The notes beneath the pieces are model-generated. The model worked only from the letters and a program-made list of their open reading frames with translations. It had not been told where the DNA came from and made no database searches. From Atribacterota bacterium (GTDB lineage Bacteria > Atribacterota > Phoenicimicrobiia > Phoenicimicrobiales > Phoenicimicrobiaceae), in NCBI GenBank assembly GCA_030666935.1, contig DAOUWX010000001.1, positions 1 through 43,142 of the forward strand: a DNA stretch of 43,142 bases. Direction: 5' to 3'. Positions 9,883 through 32,191 of the stretch are shown here, piece by piece. The number at the start of each line of letters is the position of its first letter. Position 1 is the stretch's first letter. Both the position numbers and the translations under genes were made by a program.

Positions 9883-10671
9883 TCATTTGTACAATCTTTG
9901 ACGAACTGCATCATACAGAATTATCCCAGCAGCTACTGACGCATTTAAGGATTCAGTGAATCCCAAGATAGGAATTTTTATTTTTTTATAAGCAGCCTTC
10001 CTCCAAATATCATTTGCTCCTCTATTTTCATTTCCAACTACTAAAGCAAAAGGTTTTTTGAGGTTAGCGGAATAGTAATATTCTTCGCCCCCTAAATCTG
10101 CTACCATAATATTTATAGAGTTATAGTTTAGCCATTTTACAGCCTCATCATCATCAAGACCATTTATAATAGGCACCTGAAACAGGGAGCCCATTGTAGA
10201 CCTAATAACTTTTGAGTTGTATAAATCTACAGTTCCTTCAGTTAATAATATTGCGGTAGCACCTGCTGCAGCGCTGGTTCTTATGATTGTCCCAAGATTT
10301 CCAGGATCCTGCAGACCATTTAAAACAACTACTGAAGGATTTACGCCAAGAATTATATCTGTCAATGATATTTCTATTTGTTCAGCTACAGCTATTATTC
10401 CTTGAGGACTAACTGTATCTGAAATTTTCTTAAATAGATTATCGGGCAGCCTTAAAACCTGGCAACCTTGATTAATTTTTGGTACATTTTCTGCTGTTTC
10501 ATTAATAATAAGGTATTTTATTTTTACTCCCCTCTTATTAGCTTCCTCAAGAAGCCTGATACCTTCTATAAGAAATAATCCACTGCTTTCACGCACTTTT
10601 TTTTGACTTAAGGCTTTTATTAACTTATATATTGGGTTTTCCTTTGAAGTAATATCTTTATACTGTTTCAT
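9883..10671 (-). CDS. TrmH/SpoU-family RNA 2'-O-methyltransferase (RlmB-like)
   Basis: Motifs LFLIEGIRLLEEA (substrate-binding N-domain), VVLNGLQDPGNLGTIIRTSAAAG, LVVGNENRG and IPILGFTESLNASVAAGIILY. I favour the internal start MKQYKDITS at 10671 over the ORF-track start at 10725. Confidence 0.85.
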   Translation of the reverse strand: MKQYKDITSKENPIYKLIKALSQKKVRESSGLFLIEGIRLLEEANKRGVKIKYLIINETAENVPKINQGCQVLRLPDNLFKKISDTVSPQGIIAVAEQIEISLTDIILGVNPSVVVLNGLQDPGNLGTIIRTSAAAGATAILLTEGTVDLYNSKVIRSTMGSLFQVPIINGLDDDEAVKWLNYNSINIMVADLGGEEYYYSANLKKPFALVVGNENRGANDIWRKAAYKKIKIPILGFTESLNASVAAGIILYDAVRQRLYK

Positions 10672-10826
10672 GTATGATGCTCCTCTATAGATTAATTGAC
10701 AACTACCAGCGCATACCTTATGCATTGAGCTTTGCTAATATGATGGAGTATAATATCAAATTTATTGAAGTTTTATATAAAATCCTTTTTTTTAGCATGG
10801 ATATTAGTTTAAATTATCTTTGTTTA

Positions 10827-10864
10827 CTATATACTACGTTTATTTTAAAAATCCTTCTTTTTCC
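10827..10864 (-). repeat. Isolated copy of the junction-element distal box (TATACTAC..AAAAATCCTTCTTTTT on the + strand)
   Basis: ctatatactacgtttattttaaaaatccttctttttcc matches the terminator-distal end of junction copies R3 and R5. It lies about 160 nt upstream of the trmH-family start, outside the island. Confidence 0.7.
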
Positions 10865-16679: not shown

Positions 16680-16803
16680 TATCTTCCACAGCTCTATATA
16701 AACTAATTTTTTACCTTATTATATGAAAAATTAAGATCTCAACTAAAAATTATTTTTTAGATGCATTTCTTTTTGTATTATTTTATTATTCGACAATATA
16801 CCT

Positions 16804-16990
16804 AAAAATCCTTCTTTTTTAAATAAAATAAAAAAGCTCTTCAGTATTTAAACTAAAGGGCTGGTATTTTCTTGGCTCCCCCTATTGGACACGTTCAGAA
16901 CTTTTAAGGGAAATATTGCAATAGAAAATATTAGATTAATAAGTTAGTTATTCAATACTAAAGAAATATCTATAGACTAGAATTTGTACA
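16804..16990 (-). repeat. Junction element copy R1 (full length)
   Basis: Read on the minus strand: TTGTAC-aaattcta promoter-like box, then ..taacttattaatctaatattttctattgcaatatttcccttaaaagttctgaacgtgtccaatagggggagcca, a degenerate terminator hairpin, then AAAAAAGAAGGATTTTT. It aligns with R2-R5. Confidence 0.9.
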
Positions 16991-17000
16991 ATATTTTAAA

Positions 17001-17034
17001 ATAAAAAGCCCTTCAACTAAATGCCAAAGGGCTT
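17001..17034 (-). terminator. Intrinsic terminator of the GGDEF gene (same hairpin family as in the junction elements)
   Basis: Minus strand reads aagccctttggcatttagttgaagggcttTTTTATTTT: a 7-8 bp stem followed by a U-tract. Confidence 0.8.
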
Positions 17035-17158
17035 GGAATTATCAAATATCCTTATTAAGGAATACCAAGTAGATAACAGACTTTTTAATCGTAGTAATTA
17101 GCTGTCGGCTGAAAGAACAAGGTTAGGACTCTTTTGTGCAAAATCAATAAAGCATCGT

Positions 17159-18013: not shown

Positions 18014-18552
18014 ATTACCTCCATGATAGGTTAATACCTAACGGTTCATATATTTTAAAATTTTAGGAAAATAAATCACATTAGTCTCTGCAAAGTTTTT
18101 GAATGTCTCCAAATTAGTTTACATTTATCTTGTTATAATAGCATAAATAAATGGAAGCAACAATCTCGTTAAAAACGAACTGCACGTTCCTGACCACAAC
18201 AAAACTATTTTGATTCTATTTGCTGACGGTTTAATAGCAGCCCCAACACGAAATATCCTACCACCGCTTGAGACTCTTTACACATACTTTCTTTCTGGCT
18301 CACTATGTTACAATACATCTTCCATCACTTATGTGTGGTCTTGTTAATGATAATACAGATCTGCAATCACCCTAACTTCGTCGTGTTCTCCTTTTCCAAC
18401 TTTAAATCTTTCCAAATCGGTTGTACGATGCATTCCATTTTATGGTTCAAAAATGTATATGCAATGATGTCAGGAGGTTTATGTATATTAATGCTTACTA
18501 TAGTTTTCTGATTTTAATTAAGTATTTTTTGGTATATTCTACTCTTGCTATT

Positions 18553-18745
18553 AAAATCCTTCTTTTTCTGGAAAATAATTTATAAAAACAAAAAGCCCTT
18601 CAGCAAATTGCCAAAGGGCTGGAAATTGTCAGCTCCCCCTATTGGAAAGCTTTAGAACTTTTAAGGGGGAAATTGCACTTGAAAACATTAGATTAATAAG
18701 TTAATTATTCATTATTCTAGGTAATCTTTAAATAGAATTTCACAA
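18553..18745 (-). repeat. Junction element copy R2 (full length, subtype aaagcttt)
   Basis: Aligns with R1, R3 and R4. The terminator hairpin is agccctttggcaatttgctgaagggct followed by a T-run on the minus strand. The internal variable box is ggaaagctttag, as in R4. Confidence 0.9.
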
Positions 18746-18921: not shown

Positions 18922-19050
18922 TTAACTTGCATTTATGGTTAGAATAATTAATACCTTATAATCCTTAAGAGATAGGGCATGACCTAAATTGATCGCCGTC
19001 GTAGTTTTCCCGGTCCCGCCTTTAAAATTTAATATTGCAATTTTTCTCAT
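18922..19050 (-). pseudogene. ParA/Soj-family ATPase N-terminal remnant (42 codons)
   Basis: Below the ORF-track size cutoff. My translation is [42 protein letters not shown]. It has the deviant Walker A KGGxGKT and the usual KVLxID context, then breaks off. Confidence 0.65.
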
Positions 19051-22216: not shown

Positions 22217-22399
22217 AAAAAATCCTTCTTTTTCTGTGAAAATAATTTATAAAAAACAAAAAACCCTTTAGCAAAATGCCAAAGGGCTTGGAATGTCTTG
22301 GCTCCCCCTATTGGACACGTTCAGAACTTTTAAGGGAAACATTGCAACTGAAAATATTAGATTAATAAGTTAGTTACACACAATTAGAATATCTTCAAG
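22217..22399 (-). repeat. Junction element copy R3 (full length, subtype gaacgtgtcc)
   Basis: Minus strand reads cTTGAAGatattctaattgtgtgTAACTAacttattaatctaatattttcagttgcaatgtttcccttaaaagttctgaacgtgtccaatagggggagccaagacattccaagccctttggcattttgctaaagggTTTTTTGTTTTTT...AAAAAGAAGGATTTTTT. Confidence 0.9.
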
Positions 22400-25458: not shown

Positions 25459-25533
25459 ATTTAATTTATTAAATTTATAGAATATAAAATATTTCAGGCT
25501 ACATGTTATATTACAAATACGACATAAGGTTTT

Positions 25534-25730
25534 AAAAATCCTTCTTTTTTGGGAAAATAATTTGTAAAAGAAAAAGCCCTTCAGCAAATGCTAAAGGGCT
25601 TGAAAATGTCTGGCTCCCCCTATTGGAAAGCTTTAGAACTTTTAAGGGAAGTATTACAACTGAAAATATTAGATTAAATCAGTTAATTCTTAATTATTAG
25701 GGGTAATATTTAACAATTAGAATTTGTAAA
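25534..25730 (-). repeat. Junction element copy R4 (full length, subtype aaagcttt)
   Basis: Aligns end to end with R1-R3. The promoter-like box is TTTACAaattctaattgttaaaTATTAC. The terminator is aagccctttagcatttgctgaagggcTTTTTC. Confidence 0.9.
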
Positions 25731-25740
25731 ATATATATAA

Positions 25741-25823
25741 AAAAGCCCTTCAGCAAAATGTCGAAGGGTTGATTATTGTCTTGCTCCCCAGACAGGACGA
25801 TTTTCACAACTTTTGTATAAATG
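25741..25823 (-). repeat. Family-B fragment plus terminator (R4b): degenerate tRNA-3'-end-like ..TCGTCCTGTCTGGGGAGCA followed by the junction-type hairpin
   Basis: Minus strand reads catttatacaaaagttgtgaaaatcgtcctgtctggggagcaagacaataatcaacccttcgacattttgctgaagggcTTTTTT. Its 5' part matches 18784-18828, and its GGGGAGC-spacer-hairpin part matches R6. Confidence 0.7.
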
Positions 25824-25829
25824 ATAACC

Positions 25830-26241
25830 ATAAAATTTGCCAACATTAATATACATTTTCGACACAAAAACCTAGATCTTTTTTACAGTAGATTTTAACC
25901 AAATGTATATGCTCTTACAAGGGTTTTCTCGGTATGCAAGTTTTTCTGGTATAAAGTATTACCTCTCTTAAACTACCCCCAGATTTCCATTGTAATAAGG
26001 TCTTTTTTTCTCTAAATTCCTTGTTGAAAGGGGTACTTTTTCTACTATTATATCCTGTATATTAAAGTTTCTTAAAATATCCTCAAATCTCTAAAATTTA
26101 TACCCTAAAATCAAAAATTTTCCTTTTTATATACTATATAATTTATCCTAAATTAGAATTAACCTTGAACGTATTACAGGAATTAGTTAATTTATTTACT
26201 TCGTCATTATTTAATGGTTCTCTTTTGTATTGGTAGGGCAT
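25830..26241 (-). pseudogene. Tyrosine recombinase (phage-integrase family) remnant: N-terminal part only, multiple frameshifts and stops
   Basis: AGGAG then ATG at 26241 gives MPYQYKREPLNNDEVNKLTNSCNTFK..*. The R-x-P-L-x3-E-V-x2-L-x3-C pattern is typical of the start of the catalytic domain. Shifted frames give SRLILI and RFEDILRNFNIQDIIVEKVPLSTRNLEKK. The catalytic R-H-R-Y region is absent. Confidence 0.4.
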
Positions 26242-26330
26242 AAATTTTCTCCTAAAAAGAAGCTGCCGAAGCAATCTGGGCGAAGCATCGCAAACACGCT
26301 GTTAGCTGAAATACGACAATTTTTTCAGAA

Positions 26331-28297: not shown

Positions 28298-28879
28298 ATT
28301 ATACCCCCTCCTTTCTTTTCTTATAATAAACATATTTCTCAATTAGTATGATTTTATTATAAAATCACCTCCTCCCTATCAGCCAAAGGGATACTATTAA
28401 TAATACCATTATTTCAATTTTTTAAATCAATTTGTGTTTGATTCTCTCGCTTGATCAAGTGAAGCCATATTTTTAAACTAATTATTTTTTGAAACTTTTA
28501 ACCTTTGTTGTATATAAATAGACTAAATATTTATTCATAAAAGACTATATGGAATGATTTTTTAGGGAACATCAACTAAAATATGGTTAATGTAAAAGTA
28601 GAAACATTGAAGGGGGACTAATCTTATTATTATCTTTGATCATAAATTATAGGAATATTTTCTATAAAATAATGGTTTAAAAAAGTCTGATATAACATTT
28701 AATTAGTTACAAAAATTAAATTTATATTTAGTGGAGTATCCTCCTTGACAAAACAATAAATAACTTTTTAAGTAAATTACGTAAATCATTTCCAAAGAAC
28801 TAGGAATTATCCCTTCGAACCTTTAAAGCATAAATATTAACTTAAACTATCTTTATTTATTATATACTACATTTTTATT

Positions 28880-28990
28880 AAAAATCCTTCTTTTTCTGGA
28901 AAATAATTTACAAAATAAAAAGCCCTTCAGCTTGATTGCCAAAGGGCTGGAAATTGTCAGCTCCCCCTATTGGACACGTTCAGAACTTTT
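28880..28990 (-). repeat. Junction element copy R5 (5'-truncated in minus sense)
   Basis: It shares the AAAAAGAAGGATTTTT box, the terminator hairpin and ..gttctgaacgtgtccaatagggggagctg. Homology ends at 28990, where an unrelated sequence is fused. Confidence 0.85.
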
Positions 28991-29035
28991 TGTTGGGGTG
29001 AGATTATAGAAGAATTACAAAACACCTATAAACTA

Positions 29036-29091
29036 AAGGAGTTTATTAATCTTCATGTTAGTGTTCCAAATAACATCTAGTGTCACGTCAC
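29036..29091. repeat. Direct repeat A flanking the methyltransferase cassette
   Basis: cctataaactaaaggagtttattaatcttcatgttagtgttccaaataacatctagt aligns with 30204-30259 at about 87% identity by eye. Confidence 0.8.
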
Positions 29092-30158: not shown

Positions 30159-30203
30159 ACCTCATAAATCATTCTATTTTTGAAATAATTCCAATAAAAA
30201 ATC

Positions 30204-30259
30204 CCTTAAACTAAAGGAGTTAATTAATCTTCCTGTTAGAGTTCCAAATAATGTGTAGT
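30204..30259. repeat. Direct repeat B flanking the methyltransferase cassette
   Basis: ccttaaactaaaggagttaattaatcttcctgttagagttccaaataatgtgtagt is the partner of 29036-29091. Confidence 0.8.
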
Positions 30260-30397
30260 TAAATATAAGTCCTTACTTATCAATGAAATTATACCCCTGC
30301 TCTTATTCTAACTTAAAATAGTGCTTTTGTTAAAGGGGAGCAGTATATTAACCTTATTATTGACTTATTGTATATCTCAAAATTTGTAAATATTATA

Positions 30398-30868
30398 TCA
30401 GCATTTATATTCCATCTTTATAAATTCATCACTACCTATCAAAGTATCCTTTTGGTAAACATCTGTTATTTCAAATCCAGCCTTTTCATAACATTTGATT
30501 GCTCGTTTATTGAAAGAACGGACTTCTAAAGCAATCTTTTTATTGTCATACCTCTTTTTACCCTCATTTTTTAGCAGTTCCATAATGATATTGCCTAAAC
30601 CTTGCCCACATAATGATGGCTTTAATCCCAATCCAACTAAAACAAAATCCTTATTTTCTACAAATCTTATATATCCACATAAACTATTATTCTCATCAAT
30701 AAGAGCAGTAAATTCATTCTTTCTTTTCTCCTCTATTGTTATCCCCCATCTTTGTTGGTTTAGAGTATCCCAATCCGGATAATTATAAATAGAATAAATT
30801 TCTTCGTATTTCCAACAACATATTTGTCTTGCATGATCTTCAGTTAAAATTTCTAATCTTAAATCCAT
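30398..30868 (-). CDS. GNAT-family N-acetyltransferase
   Basis: 156 aa. The acetyl-CoA-binding segment is LKPSLCGQGLGNIIMELL, with a C-terminal AIKCYEKAGFE. Confidence 0.85.
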   Translation of the reverse strand: MDLRLEILTEDHARQICCWKYEEIYSIYNYPDWDTLNQQRWGITIEEKRKNEFTALIDENNSLCGYIRFVENKDFVLVGLGLKPSLCGQGLGNIIMELLKNEGKKRYDNKKIALEVRSFNKRAIKCYEKAGFEITDVYQKDTLIGSDEFIKMEYKC

Positions 30869-30904
30869 TGCTTATCGCTTGCTTTCTTTATAATATAAAT
30901 AAAA

Positions 30905-31630
30905 TCAAATTTTATTGACCCAACCTTCGAAAATGAATTTATTTAATGCCTTAAACATAATTTCAAGTGCCTTTTTCCAACTTGCGTTTAAATTATCCTT
31001 CATCTCTTCATCGGCATTATCTGTTATCACCCGAAAAGAAAAGCTTTTTATCTCATTTAGTTGTGCTGTCTTTAAGACCGCTGATGTTTCCCAATTGCAT
31101 GCTGTTGCACCTAATTTATGGTTTAACTCTTGACGAAGCTCTTTATTGTTTACATCCTTTTCCCCACTGGCAATATTACCAACCCTTATTGTAGTTCCCA
31201 TATTTTCCTTAGCCCAATTTGAAAATTCTTTTAGTACTTCTTTAGAAAAAACTTTATTAAGTACTGTACTTGTCTTTAAATCATCGGGCATTTTAGCTAA
31301 TTTATCTGTTGGACAGACATCGTATTCAAATGAATGCTTGCCGCAGATGATATCATAAAGATTTACGTCAACAGATAATGAACCGGAAGCACCAACATCA
31401 AATACAAAGTCAGGTTCAAACTTATCAATAATCAATTGTGTTGCTGAAGCGCAGTGTATTTTCCCTGGACCTGCTTTTATAGCTATTACTTCTACATCTT
31501 TTTCTCTTCTAGATGAAATTAACCTTCCTGCTAATTCAGTTTCATTATGTAATTTTAATATCTCCTTGCAACTCTGATATTCGATATCGCAAGGACATAT
31601 AATACCAATTCTAACTAATGAATTAATCAT
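30905..31630 (-). CDS. PNP_UDP_1-family nucleosidase/phosphorylase (MTA/SAH-nucleosidase-like)
   Basis: 241 aa with the pattern IGIICPCDIE..., GPGKIHCASATQLII, DVGASGS, IASGEKDV and NWETSAVL, as in Pfs/MtnN-type enzymes. Confidence 0.75.
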   Translation of the reverse strand: MINSLVRIGIICPCDIEYQSCKEILKLHNETELAGRLISSRREKDVEVIAIKAGPGKIHCASATQLIIDKFEPDFVFDVGASGSLSVDVNLYDIICGKHSFEYDVCPTDKLAKMPDDLKTSTVLNKVFSKEVLKEFSNWAKENMGTTIRVGNIASGEKDVNNKELRQELNHKLGATACNWETSAVLKTAQLNEIKSFSFRVITDNADEEMKDNLNASWKKALEIMFKALNKFIFEGWVNKI

Positions 31631-31837
31631 AAAATTACTTCACCTCAGATTTACCTTTAATAATACGAACCACGTTCTTAAATGTGTCAGGGGAACGGTT
31701 CTTTAATACACTTCAGGGAAAACATGGGGTCGGGCCTTCATATTTGTCATAATTAATTACTTAAAAGAAACTTTTTGAATTATTATAAAATAATAATCAC
31801 AAAATTGTTTATAATTAGACATTACGGTAAATTTTTC

Positions 31838-31919
31838 AAAAAACCTTCTTTTTTTGAAAGATAATTAAAAAAAACAAAAAGCCCTTCAGCAAAAAGCCAA
31901 AGGGCTGGAAATTGACAAG
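31838..31919 (-). repeat. Junction element copy R6 (terminator plus distal box only)
   Basis: Minus strand reads ..GGGGAGCttgtcaatttccagccctttggctttttgctgaagggcTTTTTGTTTTTTTT...AAAAAAAGAAGGTTTTTT. It is colinear with the 3' half of R1-R5. Confidence 0.85.
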
Positions 31920-31949
31920 CTCCCCGGGTAGGATTCGAACCTACAACCC
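31920..31949 (-). pseudogene. tRNA 3' fragment (T-arm plus 3' acceptor strand); no 5' half present
   Basis: Minus strand reads gggtt-GTAGG-TTCGAAT-CCTAC-CCGGGGA-G, a canonical T stem-loop plus a 7-nt acceptor strand and discriminator. Upstream sequence has no complementary TCCCCGG, D-arm or anticodon stem. Confidence 0.8.
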
Positions 31950-32191
31950 TCTTTTAGCAAGCCTCTATTTATTTATCAATAAATCGTTTCGTATTGCGTA
32001 TCGAGTATCGCGTGAAGAAAAAGAACTCGATAAAAAAGAAGATAGAAAAACAAAAGCAATAAATATTCTTTCCTCCTTTCTTACTACCCCACTAAAGTTT
32101 ACACTAACAATTTCCTACTTCACTAACAAATTAAAAGTAGACTCTTAAGAATAACCTAAAATTGTAATAATATAGAGTCGGAAAATAATGC

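Follow-up and report, generated by a model that had tools for sequence, protein, structure and literature searches.

A tRNA-Asn 3' fragment at the head of a cassette row in an Atribacterota genome as a probable attachment site of large serine recombinases

The composite islands of the staphylococcal cassette chromosome (SCC, including SCCmec) at rlmH (orfX) are made by the large serine recombinases (LSRs) CcrAB and CcrC. A homologue of CcrB, the serine recombinase DsiB, is associated with the tandem ssrA islands of Dehalococcoides (PMC3146451). These islands follow one another in one direction behind ssrA, with the 3' end of this gene repeated directly at the boundaries of each island; further conserved bases adjoin the repeat, and the LSR lies next to attL. 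Many of the islands have no integration module and have been proposed to be mobilizable in cis (PMC3146451). The SCC and Dehalococcoides islands are the nearest published systems to the one described here, a one-directional row of small gene cassettes separated by related junctions (R1-R5) and headed by an orphan 3' fragment of a tRNA gene (R6). The row lies in a stretch of 43,142 nucleotides (nt; the window), positions 1 to 43,142 of the forward strand of contig DAOUWX010000001.1 in assembly GCA_030666935.1 of an Atribacterota bacterium. Atribacterota are a widespread, mostly uncultured subsurface phylum, and a literature search found no description of such arrays in Atribacteria. The source genome (G000) comprises 438 contigs and 2.4 Mb; other G numbers denote related genomes, and contigs given without one belong to the source genome.

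We propose that R6 is an attB-type site and that the cassettes behind it were most likely inserted one after another by LSRs, a reading that we consider probable. As in Dehalococcoides, a stable-RNA gene heads a one-directional row, and an LSR that reads into ssrA also exists in the Atribacterota lineage. Unlike in Dehalococcoides, the main target here is tRNA-Asn, with a core of 7 nt instead of 20 nt, and the units are small (1-3.7 kb), almost all of them without a recombinase. Moreover, attP would lie in the last recombinase codons, each scar holding an orphaned gene end, and it is a non-functional copy of the target (R6, or a second tRNA-Asn copy) that heads an array, away from the essential gene. 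With SCC the system would share recurrent insertion by LSRs at one place, the 3' end of a conserved gene, giving stacks that are split by short site repeats and contain recombinase-less units of the pseudo-SCC kind. It differs from SCC in its phylum, in its target (the end of an RNA gene together with the terminator), in scars that hold a piece of the recombinase gene, and in the terminator-promoter trailer that each unit brings.

R6 was an exact copy of the 3' part of a tRNA gene. The minus strand reads GAGGGTTGTAGGTTCGAATCCTACCCGGGGAGC from 31951 to 31919, and this block was identical at 33/33 positions to nt 41-73 of tRNA-Asn(GTT) (E = 8.9e-11 in a whole-genome search), which comprise the end of the anticodon stem, the variable loop, the T arm, the 3' strand of the acceptor stem and the discriminator. 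The initial annotation, made from the window alone, had noticed an orphan tRNA 3' fragment at 31920-31949; as the identity block spans 31919-31951, the true fragment is slightly longer. The parental gene that it proposed to look for was found by running ARAGORN on all contigs: it lies at C230:12748-12821 and is the sole tRNA-Asn in the assembly. The 25-mer GTAGG...GGGGAG occurred at only two places in the 2.4 Mb, namely R6 and this gene. The C230 gene has its own promoter (TTGACT-N17-TATAAT) and stands directly downstream of dnaG and rpoD; the pairing of rpoD with tRNA-Asn is kept in about 30 related genomes. In the window itself, ARAGORN reported 0 tRNA genes and Rfam no tRNA at gathering score, only three glycine-riboswitch aptamers. 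The earlier statement that neither an intact tRNA nor a 5' half is present thus stands, for the window only. The complete cloverleaf of a functional tRNA is absent from the window: of the tRNA there is nothing but nt 41-73, preceded by unrelated sequence. The transition at nt 40|41 is abrupt, and the residual likeness of the 12-40 nt upstream of R6 to tRNA nt 1-40 was not significant (p = 0.08-0.35).

The tRNA arm of R6 (31919-31951, minus strand), the presumed left arm of attB, ends in the heptamer GGGGAGC (31925-31919), which is the core shared with the other junctions. It is followed on the same strand by the native trailer of tRNA-Asn (31835-31918), the presumed right arm of attB, which consists of a 12-nt spacer (31918-31907), an intrinsic terminator with 11 pairs and a T run (31906-31880) and, 3' of the terminator, a promoter-like A-rich box, AAAAAAAGAAGGTTTTTT, at about 31855-31838. 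The observation that the fragment is followed by the same spacer and hairpin as R1-R5 was borne out, since a profile made from R1-R5 alone found R6 with E = 2.8e-18. Compared with the DNA that follows intact tRNA-Asn genes in relatives, the trailer showed 85-94% identity, the longest matches (G012:C93 and G021:C12) being 88-89% identical, and in the genus and several sister genera an intact tRNA-Asn is immediately followed by the same spacer, terminator and box. Behind this trailer, G021:C12 and G015:C25 each carry three full junctions in the orientation of the tRNA gene, and G015:C3 and G012:C93 also have junction arrays behind an intact tRNA-Asn, running in the same direction. By these alignments, the right half of every junction, from GGGGAGC onward, descends from the trailer of tRNA-Asn. 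The four relatives also qualify the earlier remark that the classical pattern of an intact tRNA plus a fragment is not present: this is true of the window, because its head copy is truncated while the functional gene sits on C230, but in the relatives an intact tRNA does stand at the head of the array.

The left halves of R1-R5 have a different source. LSR genes were found in 8/18 genomes of the genus; they encode proteins of 470-524 amino acids (aa) with Resolvase, Recombinase and Zn_ribbon_recom domains (all three in four LSRs of sister genomes) and usually stand beside a gene for a DnaG-like primase (CHC2 zinc finger and Toprim). A 492-aa LSR in G009:C124 and G006:C196 ends in ...STCPIG(H/R)VQNF-stop, and the junction profile overlapped the end of its open reading frame (ORF) on the opposite strand, with E = 1.4e-22 in G009:C124 and 5.4e-20 in G006:C196. 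The left arm of type A1 junctions is the reverse complement of TGC CCT ATT GGA CAC GTT CAG AAC TTT TAA plus the 3' untranslated region (3'UTR). It reads ...TTTCCCTTAAAAGTTCTGAACGTGTCCAATAGGG, after which the LSR gene continues with CAAGTAGAACG... whereas the junctions continue with GGAGC and the trailer; the divergence comes directly after CCAATAGGG (gene, ...AATAGGG|CAAG; junction, ...AATAGGG|GGAGC). A third intact type-A LSR gene, on the public contig L215, has the same end. The ends of all three genes are therefore the reverse complement of the type-A arm, as expected of attP. We call a type-A gene body joined to CCCTATTGG the attP form and one joined to anything else the attL form.

Because the left arm is an LSR gene end (8-9 terminal codons with stop codon and 3'UTR, in reverse complement) and the right arm is the tRNA trailer, R1-R5 are best described as hybrid attR-type scars, in which the orphaned attP arm is joined to the attB arm. 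R6, with a tRNA arm on its left and the trailer on its right, would be of the attB type and not a scar, and it appears to be the only such site in the window. Comparison of attP (AATAGGG|CAAG), junction (AATAGGGGGAGC) and attB (TACCCGGGGAGC) suggests that the exchange takes place inside the G-run, which is consistent with GG as the central dinucleotide.

All junctions of the window lie on the minus strand. R5 (28879-29038) is of type A2 and joins the recombinase-gene end to GGGGGAGC and the trailer; on the plus strand it reads PPIGHVQNF, with the TAA lost and the frame continuing to LLG-stop. The others are of type A1: R4 (25533-25699) and R2 (18552-18717) hold the gene end PPIGKL-stop, R3 (22219-22387) holds PPIGHVQNF-stop, and R1 (16803-16959) holds APPIGHVQNF-stop, its trailer entering the leader of the mtlD operon. 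Directly before the R4 arm stands a further junction, R4b (25723-25815), with the type B core CCTGTCTGGGGAGC and a terminator. The same order, in which a type-B-like core (TTTTGTTGGGGAGC) and a terminator precede an A1 arm, adjoins the intact recombinase gene of G009:C124. R1b (16986-17040), a terminator-only relative of the trailer, likewise stands directly before the R1 arm.

The initial annotation had taken the left arms for decayed versions of the tRNA fragment and had derived every junction from a unit consisting of a tRNA 3' end and its terminator. The second idea survives for the GGGGAGC core and the trailer, which are all that R1-R5 have in common with the tRNA, but not for the left halves. 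When the 25-28 nt before GGGGAGC were compared with nt 41-66 of tRNA-Asn, the similarity was not significant against shuffles (p = 0.06 and 0.007 for the two type-A variants of the window and 0.42 for type B), and the best-matching tRNA of the junction left arms was not tRNA-Asn. A decayed T arm in R1-R5 was rejected on both grounds, the arms being the reverse complement of the LSR gene end.

The profile of R1-R5 detected about 25 more copies on C200, C117 and C2, all in one orientation and between unrelated genes. The junction family was present in 24/24 genomes of the taxonomic family and in 9/16 of the neighbouring one, and the public contigs that carry it belong to Atribacterota, apart from some that are probably mis-binned. 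From the source genome and its relatives we gathered 106 distinct junctions, comprising 52 of type A (CCAATAGGGGGAGC), 23 of the tRNA type (CCTACCCGGGGAGC) and 9 of type B, the remainder including minor types. In type A, 31 nt are invariant, AAAAGTTCTNAANNNNTCCAATAGGGGGAGC, and the sequence farther to the left falls into three or more unrelated flanks; the four variable bases in this core make up two codons, encoding HV, KL, RF, QL or QV. Every combination of left-arm type with spacer type was found. Both R1-R5 and the arrays of relatives consist of repeated attR-type scars in one orientation behind the target. In the type-B left arms (plus strand 25784-25850 in the window, and C200) we noted one frame on the opposite strand, ...LPRQDEFRNFCMSDETEKV(C/Y/H)HKLEEVI..C-stop, whose last 19 codons are conserved in length and by conservative substitutions. 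This frame may represent a small ORF or else the end of a gene from another recombinase lineage; an intact gene with a type-B tail was not found.

LSR genes were also found against stable-RNA genes. G009:C366 has the rpoD-side promoter, an intact tRNA-Asn and, immediately behind it, a reversed gene for a 493-aa LSR. The last codons of this gene, AAC TGG CTC CCC GGG TAG (NWLPG-stop), complement the 3' end of tRNA-Asn. Identity of the LSR to the type-A enzyme is 34%, and the two align up to ...R(K/S)PF..(L/I)A, the tails differing beyond that point. The locus has the structure of an attL of a second LSR lineage. In G009:C176, an LSR reads into the 3' end of ssrA. Taken together, these gene ends point to an LSR family in this lineage that has attP in its own last codons and targets the 3' ends of stable-RNA genes. 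Two further loci were noted. In G015:C2:3593-5164 (L177), a further member of the family, a 523-aa LSR whose gene adjoins that of a DnaG-like primase, reads into the 3' end of tRNA-Pro, and its last 25 or so codons are the reverse complement of the whole tRNA-Pro gene. In the source genome, at the start of C234 (C234:19-234 and 241-597), a C-terminal LSR fragment of 72 aa, over which it shares 60% identity with the G009:C124 enzyme, runs into the 3' end of ssrA, the gene of transfer-messenger RNA; the arrangement matches that of G009:C176 and recalls the Dehalococcoides ssrA islands.

The cassette stack occupies 15 kb of the minus strand, from R6 at 31.9 kb to the mtlD operon at 16.8 kb. The first cassette behind R6 (30363-31834) encodes a PNP_UDP_1 phosphorylase and a GNAT acetyltransferase. 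The interval 31925-30363, made up of the R6 core, the trailer and this cassette, was 95% identical to G013:C380, in which the block sits behind a type A2 arm and not behind a tRNA arm, the homology beginning exactly at GGGGAGC. Because one and the same cassette thus stands behind different left arms with homology from the core onward, cassettes appear to be exchanged at GGGGAGC. Pieces of the cassettes, among them the GNAT gene, are also met in different contexts. A type-A2 left arm (30197-30312 and 29019-29081) that has neither core nor trailer stands between the GNAT gene and the methyltransferase gene, and the homology to the phosphorylase-acetyltransferase block stops at 30363. The interval between R6 and R5 would therefore represent two former cassettes with a degraded junction between them.

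These elements can be assembled into the following scheme. LSRs of the lineage would carry attP within their own last codons and use the 3' ends of tRNA and tmRNA genes as targets. Integration at the G-run of ...CCCGGGGAGC would split the body of the recombinase gene from its last nine or so codons, and the split-off codons, with the stop codon and the 3'UTR, would end up joined to the tRNA trailer, giving an attR-type scar such as R1-R5. Repeated insertion, followed by loss of the recombinase module or by mobilisation in trans, would leave a one-directional row of recombinase-less cassettes, each closed by a scar and a copy of the trailer that supplies a terminator and a promoter, with R6 as the target-side site. 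Tyrosine recombinases of archaeal viruses, the SSV1-type fusellovirus integrases, provide a precedent for an attP inside the int gene, which they split mid-gene. Partition of the recombinase gene on integration, an attP in coding sequence and a tRNA-gene target are features that the proposed scheme has in common with SSV1. It differs from SSV1 in that the recombinase is a serine recombinase, only the last nine or so codons are split off, and a new tail is gained from the target.

If correct, this account explains the puzzling orphan tRNA fragment and names the likely enzyme family for a cassette system that is lineage-wide in Atribacterota. If the arrays are active, they would provide integron-like gene capture by a second route with a different mechanism. 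The recombinase and att pairs are short and defined (the gene end as attP; the tRNA-Asn end with its trailer as attB), which makes the scheme directly testable.

Several observations weigh against the proposed role of LSRs. Neither a complete LSR nor a remnant of an LSR body was found in the window, and no Resolvase domain was found in the source genome, in which the 72-aa fragment at ssrA is the only LSR sequence. A type-A attL, that is, a tRNA arm joined to ...CAAGTAG, occurred 0 times in the fetched loci and 0 times in a scan of the genome collection, and the three intact type-A genes are all in the attP form. A 17-nt scan for other contexts of the LSR gene end gave about 100 chance matches, the query being too short, and the two relevant contigs among them were both in the attP form. 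The predicted type-A attL, ...CCTACCCGG|CAAGTAG, would furthermore break two acceptor-stem pairs of the real tRNA-Asn; type-A scars nonetheless lie behind intact tRNA-Asn genes, which the scheme does not explain. The sequence around GGGGAGC shows no dyad symmetry in the main junction types (a mean of 2.3-2.7/7 positions), only the minor type B having a dyad. Association across the core, measured as Cramér's V in the junction set, was low between left and right, but it was also low within the right half, which is unlinked throughout while the left arms are structured, so that no crossover could be located. Lastly, C230, with the intact tRNA-Asn, and the contig of R6 are not physically linked in the assembly.

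One possibility is that type-A scars enter at decoy sites such as R6. In a broader and tentative form of this idea, which we regard as possible but doubtful, Atribacterota would capture genes in an integron-like manner by LSRs, with defective copies of the tRNA-Asn 3' end and trailer, such as R6 and the decaying second tRNA-Asn, serving as decoy landing pads. Such pads would be called for because insertion by the type-A recombinase, the commonest one, is predicted to change GGGA of the acceptor strand to CAAG and thereby to disable the real tRNA-Asn. Recombinase-less cassettes would then move in trans between pads, both within and between genomes.

The locus in relatives, inspected as the initial annotation had advised, did contain a full-length tRNA. 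In G005:C47, the mtlD-pfkB operon is immediately preceded by a second tRNA-Asn that has a promoter of its own; this copy is decaying, with a damaged T stem and an altered 5' end, and its trailer and mtlD leader are homologous to the trailer and leader of R1 in the window. An orthologous second tRNA-Asn, with the same upstream ABC-transporter flank (89% identity), heads the array of G015:C25. This flank is missing from the source genome. From this synteny, the window array looks like a stack inserted between a second tRNA-Asn copy and mtlD, with R6 as the remnant of that copy, and R6 is then probably a non-essential second tRNA-Asn truncated at nt 40|41. A boundary at 40|41 or 41|42 also occurs in G021:C184, G011:C162 and G011:C70, with a left flank different from that of R6, namely a GYD-domain gene and a hairpin, which in G011:C70 lies within an array. 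The recurrence of the boundary suggests that some elements may carry nt 41-73 as their recombinase-side arm and that R6 could be the attR of such an element. Both origins fit the data, and R6 would be an LSR attachment site under either. On the xylose-isomerase side of R6 no empty site was found, since the gene order of relatives differs and no tRNA or junction is present there; homology to the closest relative begins only 66 nt before the xylose-isomerase-like gene.

R6 might instead be a dead remnant of a duplicated tRNA-Asn that lost nt 1-40 through a random deletion or rearrangement, perhaps in connection with a dispersed repeat lying 27 nt upstream; it would have no present role, and the cassettes would have come otherwise. 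The second tRNA-Asn with a broken acceptor or T stem at the orthologous mtlD locus of G005 and G015 is in keeping with this, as are an upstream flank that is unique to the source genome and holds the repeat (31979-32112, about 125 nt), and a window free of recombinases. However, an endpoint that recurs within 1 nt in G021:C184, G011:C162 and G011:C70 has a probability of about 4% if it is random; the 33 nt have kept 100% identity to the functional gene, in contrast to the wholly unrelated sequence upstream; and the approximately 28 nt retained to the left of the G-run suffice for a whole LSR half-site. We regard a dead remnant as unlikely. A purely regulatory role appears very improbable. In that case, the junctions including R6 would be modules in which a promoter is followed by a short structured RNA with GGGGGAGC at its end, then by a terminator and another promoter, spread by duplication together with genes, and the likeness to tRNA would reflect ancestry only. 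A TTGAAT-N16-TAATAT box is indeed present in type A1 arms, most of 32 copies show no change other than C/T in the 7-nt pyrimidine tract that faces the invariant AGGGGGA, one copy (C2) has a compensatory change on both strands, the terminator stem covaries, and the box after the terminator is promoter-like and is also found elsewhere in the genome. Yet the stem is missing from types A3, B and T and shifted in A2, identical cassettes stand behind different arms, and the invariant 31 nt are explained by LSR coding sequence, the variation falling on two codons. A role of the trailer in transcription fits the LSR account as well and is no rival to it.

The pattern known from islands in tRNA genes (tDNA) is that tyrosine integrases restore the tRNA and that the intact gene and a fragment flank one island (PMC4383910). 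Crossover in the T loop by a tyrosine integrase would make R6 the attR, the C230 tRNA-Asn the attL and the DNA between them the island. R6 and the 3' part of the intact gene are indeed identical within one genome, as in the Islander pattern (PMC4383910), so that a tRNA 3' fragment marks a boundary in both cases. The identity block begins just 5' of the T arm, as expected for T-loop sublocation sites, the end of C230 coincides exactly with the 3' end of its tRNA, and a short ORF at 26143-26274 resembles a pseudo-integrase, though by the label of the initial annotation only. But the fragment here heads an array, no tyrosine integrase is linked to it and the other junctions are not copies of a tRNA. 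PF00589 had no match on the window contig, none of the three full tyrosine recombinases of the genome lies near an array, and the IntI/XerA-like one is sporadic (6/41 genomes); the enzymes fused to tRNA-Asn and to the junction arm are LSRs. Furthermore, the DNA upstream of R6 in tRNA orientation is a sugar-utilisation block with a xylose-isomerase-like gene and galK, 80-90% identical genus-wide, and in relatives these two genes occur without linkage to tRNA-Asn; an island consisting of this block between tRNA-Asn and R6 is accordingly unlikely. Altogether, the tyrosine-integrase reading is most improbable. An integron was rejected too. One-directional, small, unrelated and exchangeable cassettes, a conserved site between them and a recombinase outside them are shared with integrons and with the integrase-less clusters of attC sites termed CALINs (PMC4889954). 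Unlike integrons, however, the array has no IntI and no attC palindrome, its junctions carry a terminator and a promoter-like box, and the linked enzymes belong to the serine family. The IntI-like protein on C36 reached 240 bits with TIGR02249, below the cut-off of 265 bits, and fits the XerA-type model NF040815, lacking model positions 180-235; it is the one found in 6/41 relatives. The imperfect palindrome of attC (R''-L''...L'-R') is absent, the only hairpin being the terminator on the coding-direction strand.

Several minor observations concern tRNA-Asn and the surroundings of the array. C230 breaks off one base past ...GGGGAGC of its tRNA-Asn, and many contigs of relatives break there likewise; no overlap of the C230 end with any other contig of the assembly was found. 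Breaks at this place are expected if variable cassette stacks lie behind the gene, and the repeats would explain them. Apart from the 3' fragments, the 5' part of tRNA-Asn was found cut at several places: after nt 35, in the anticodon, and followed by unrelated DNA at the rpoD locus of G013:C307:2720-2754 (L128), again at nt 35 in G016:C480, and at nt 44-45 in G017:C53 and in G028:C32, the last at a contig end. The tRNA-Asn gene thus has the appearance of a recombination hot spot with several breakpoints. The dispersed repeat upstream of R6, GTTAGTGTAAACTTTAGTGGGGTAGT...TTTCTTAACTCGATACTCGATAC, ends in heptamer repeats of the type CGATAC(T/G) and has 25 or more copies in the genome, which are spread over its contigs and lie on both strands; it could be a miniature inverted-repeat transposable element, a small RNA or something else.

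Within the cassettes, a short ORF at 18922-19050 begins like a ParA-type ATPase, and the ORF at 26143-26274 encodes 43 aa and was labelled as the start of a tyrosine recombinase; if these labels hold, both are plasmid- or phage-like debris. A box AAAAAGAAGGATTTTT, followed about 10 nt later by TGTAGTATA, was seen in minus-strand sense at 10789-10863, 16787-16819, 18535-18567 and 28863-28895. It also occurs away from junctions, for instance in front of the gene at 9883-10725 and on numerous further contigs, and looks like a general promoter type of the organism rather than a junction-specific signal.

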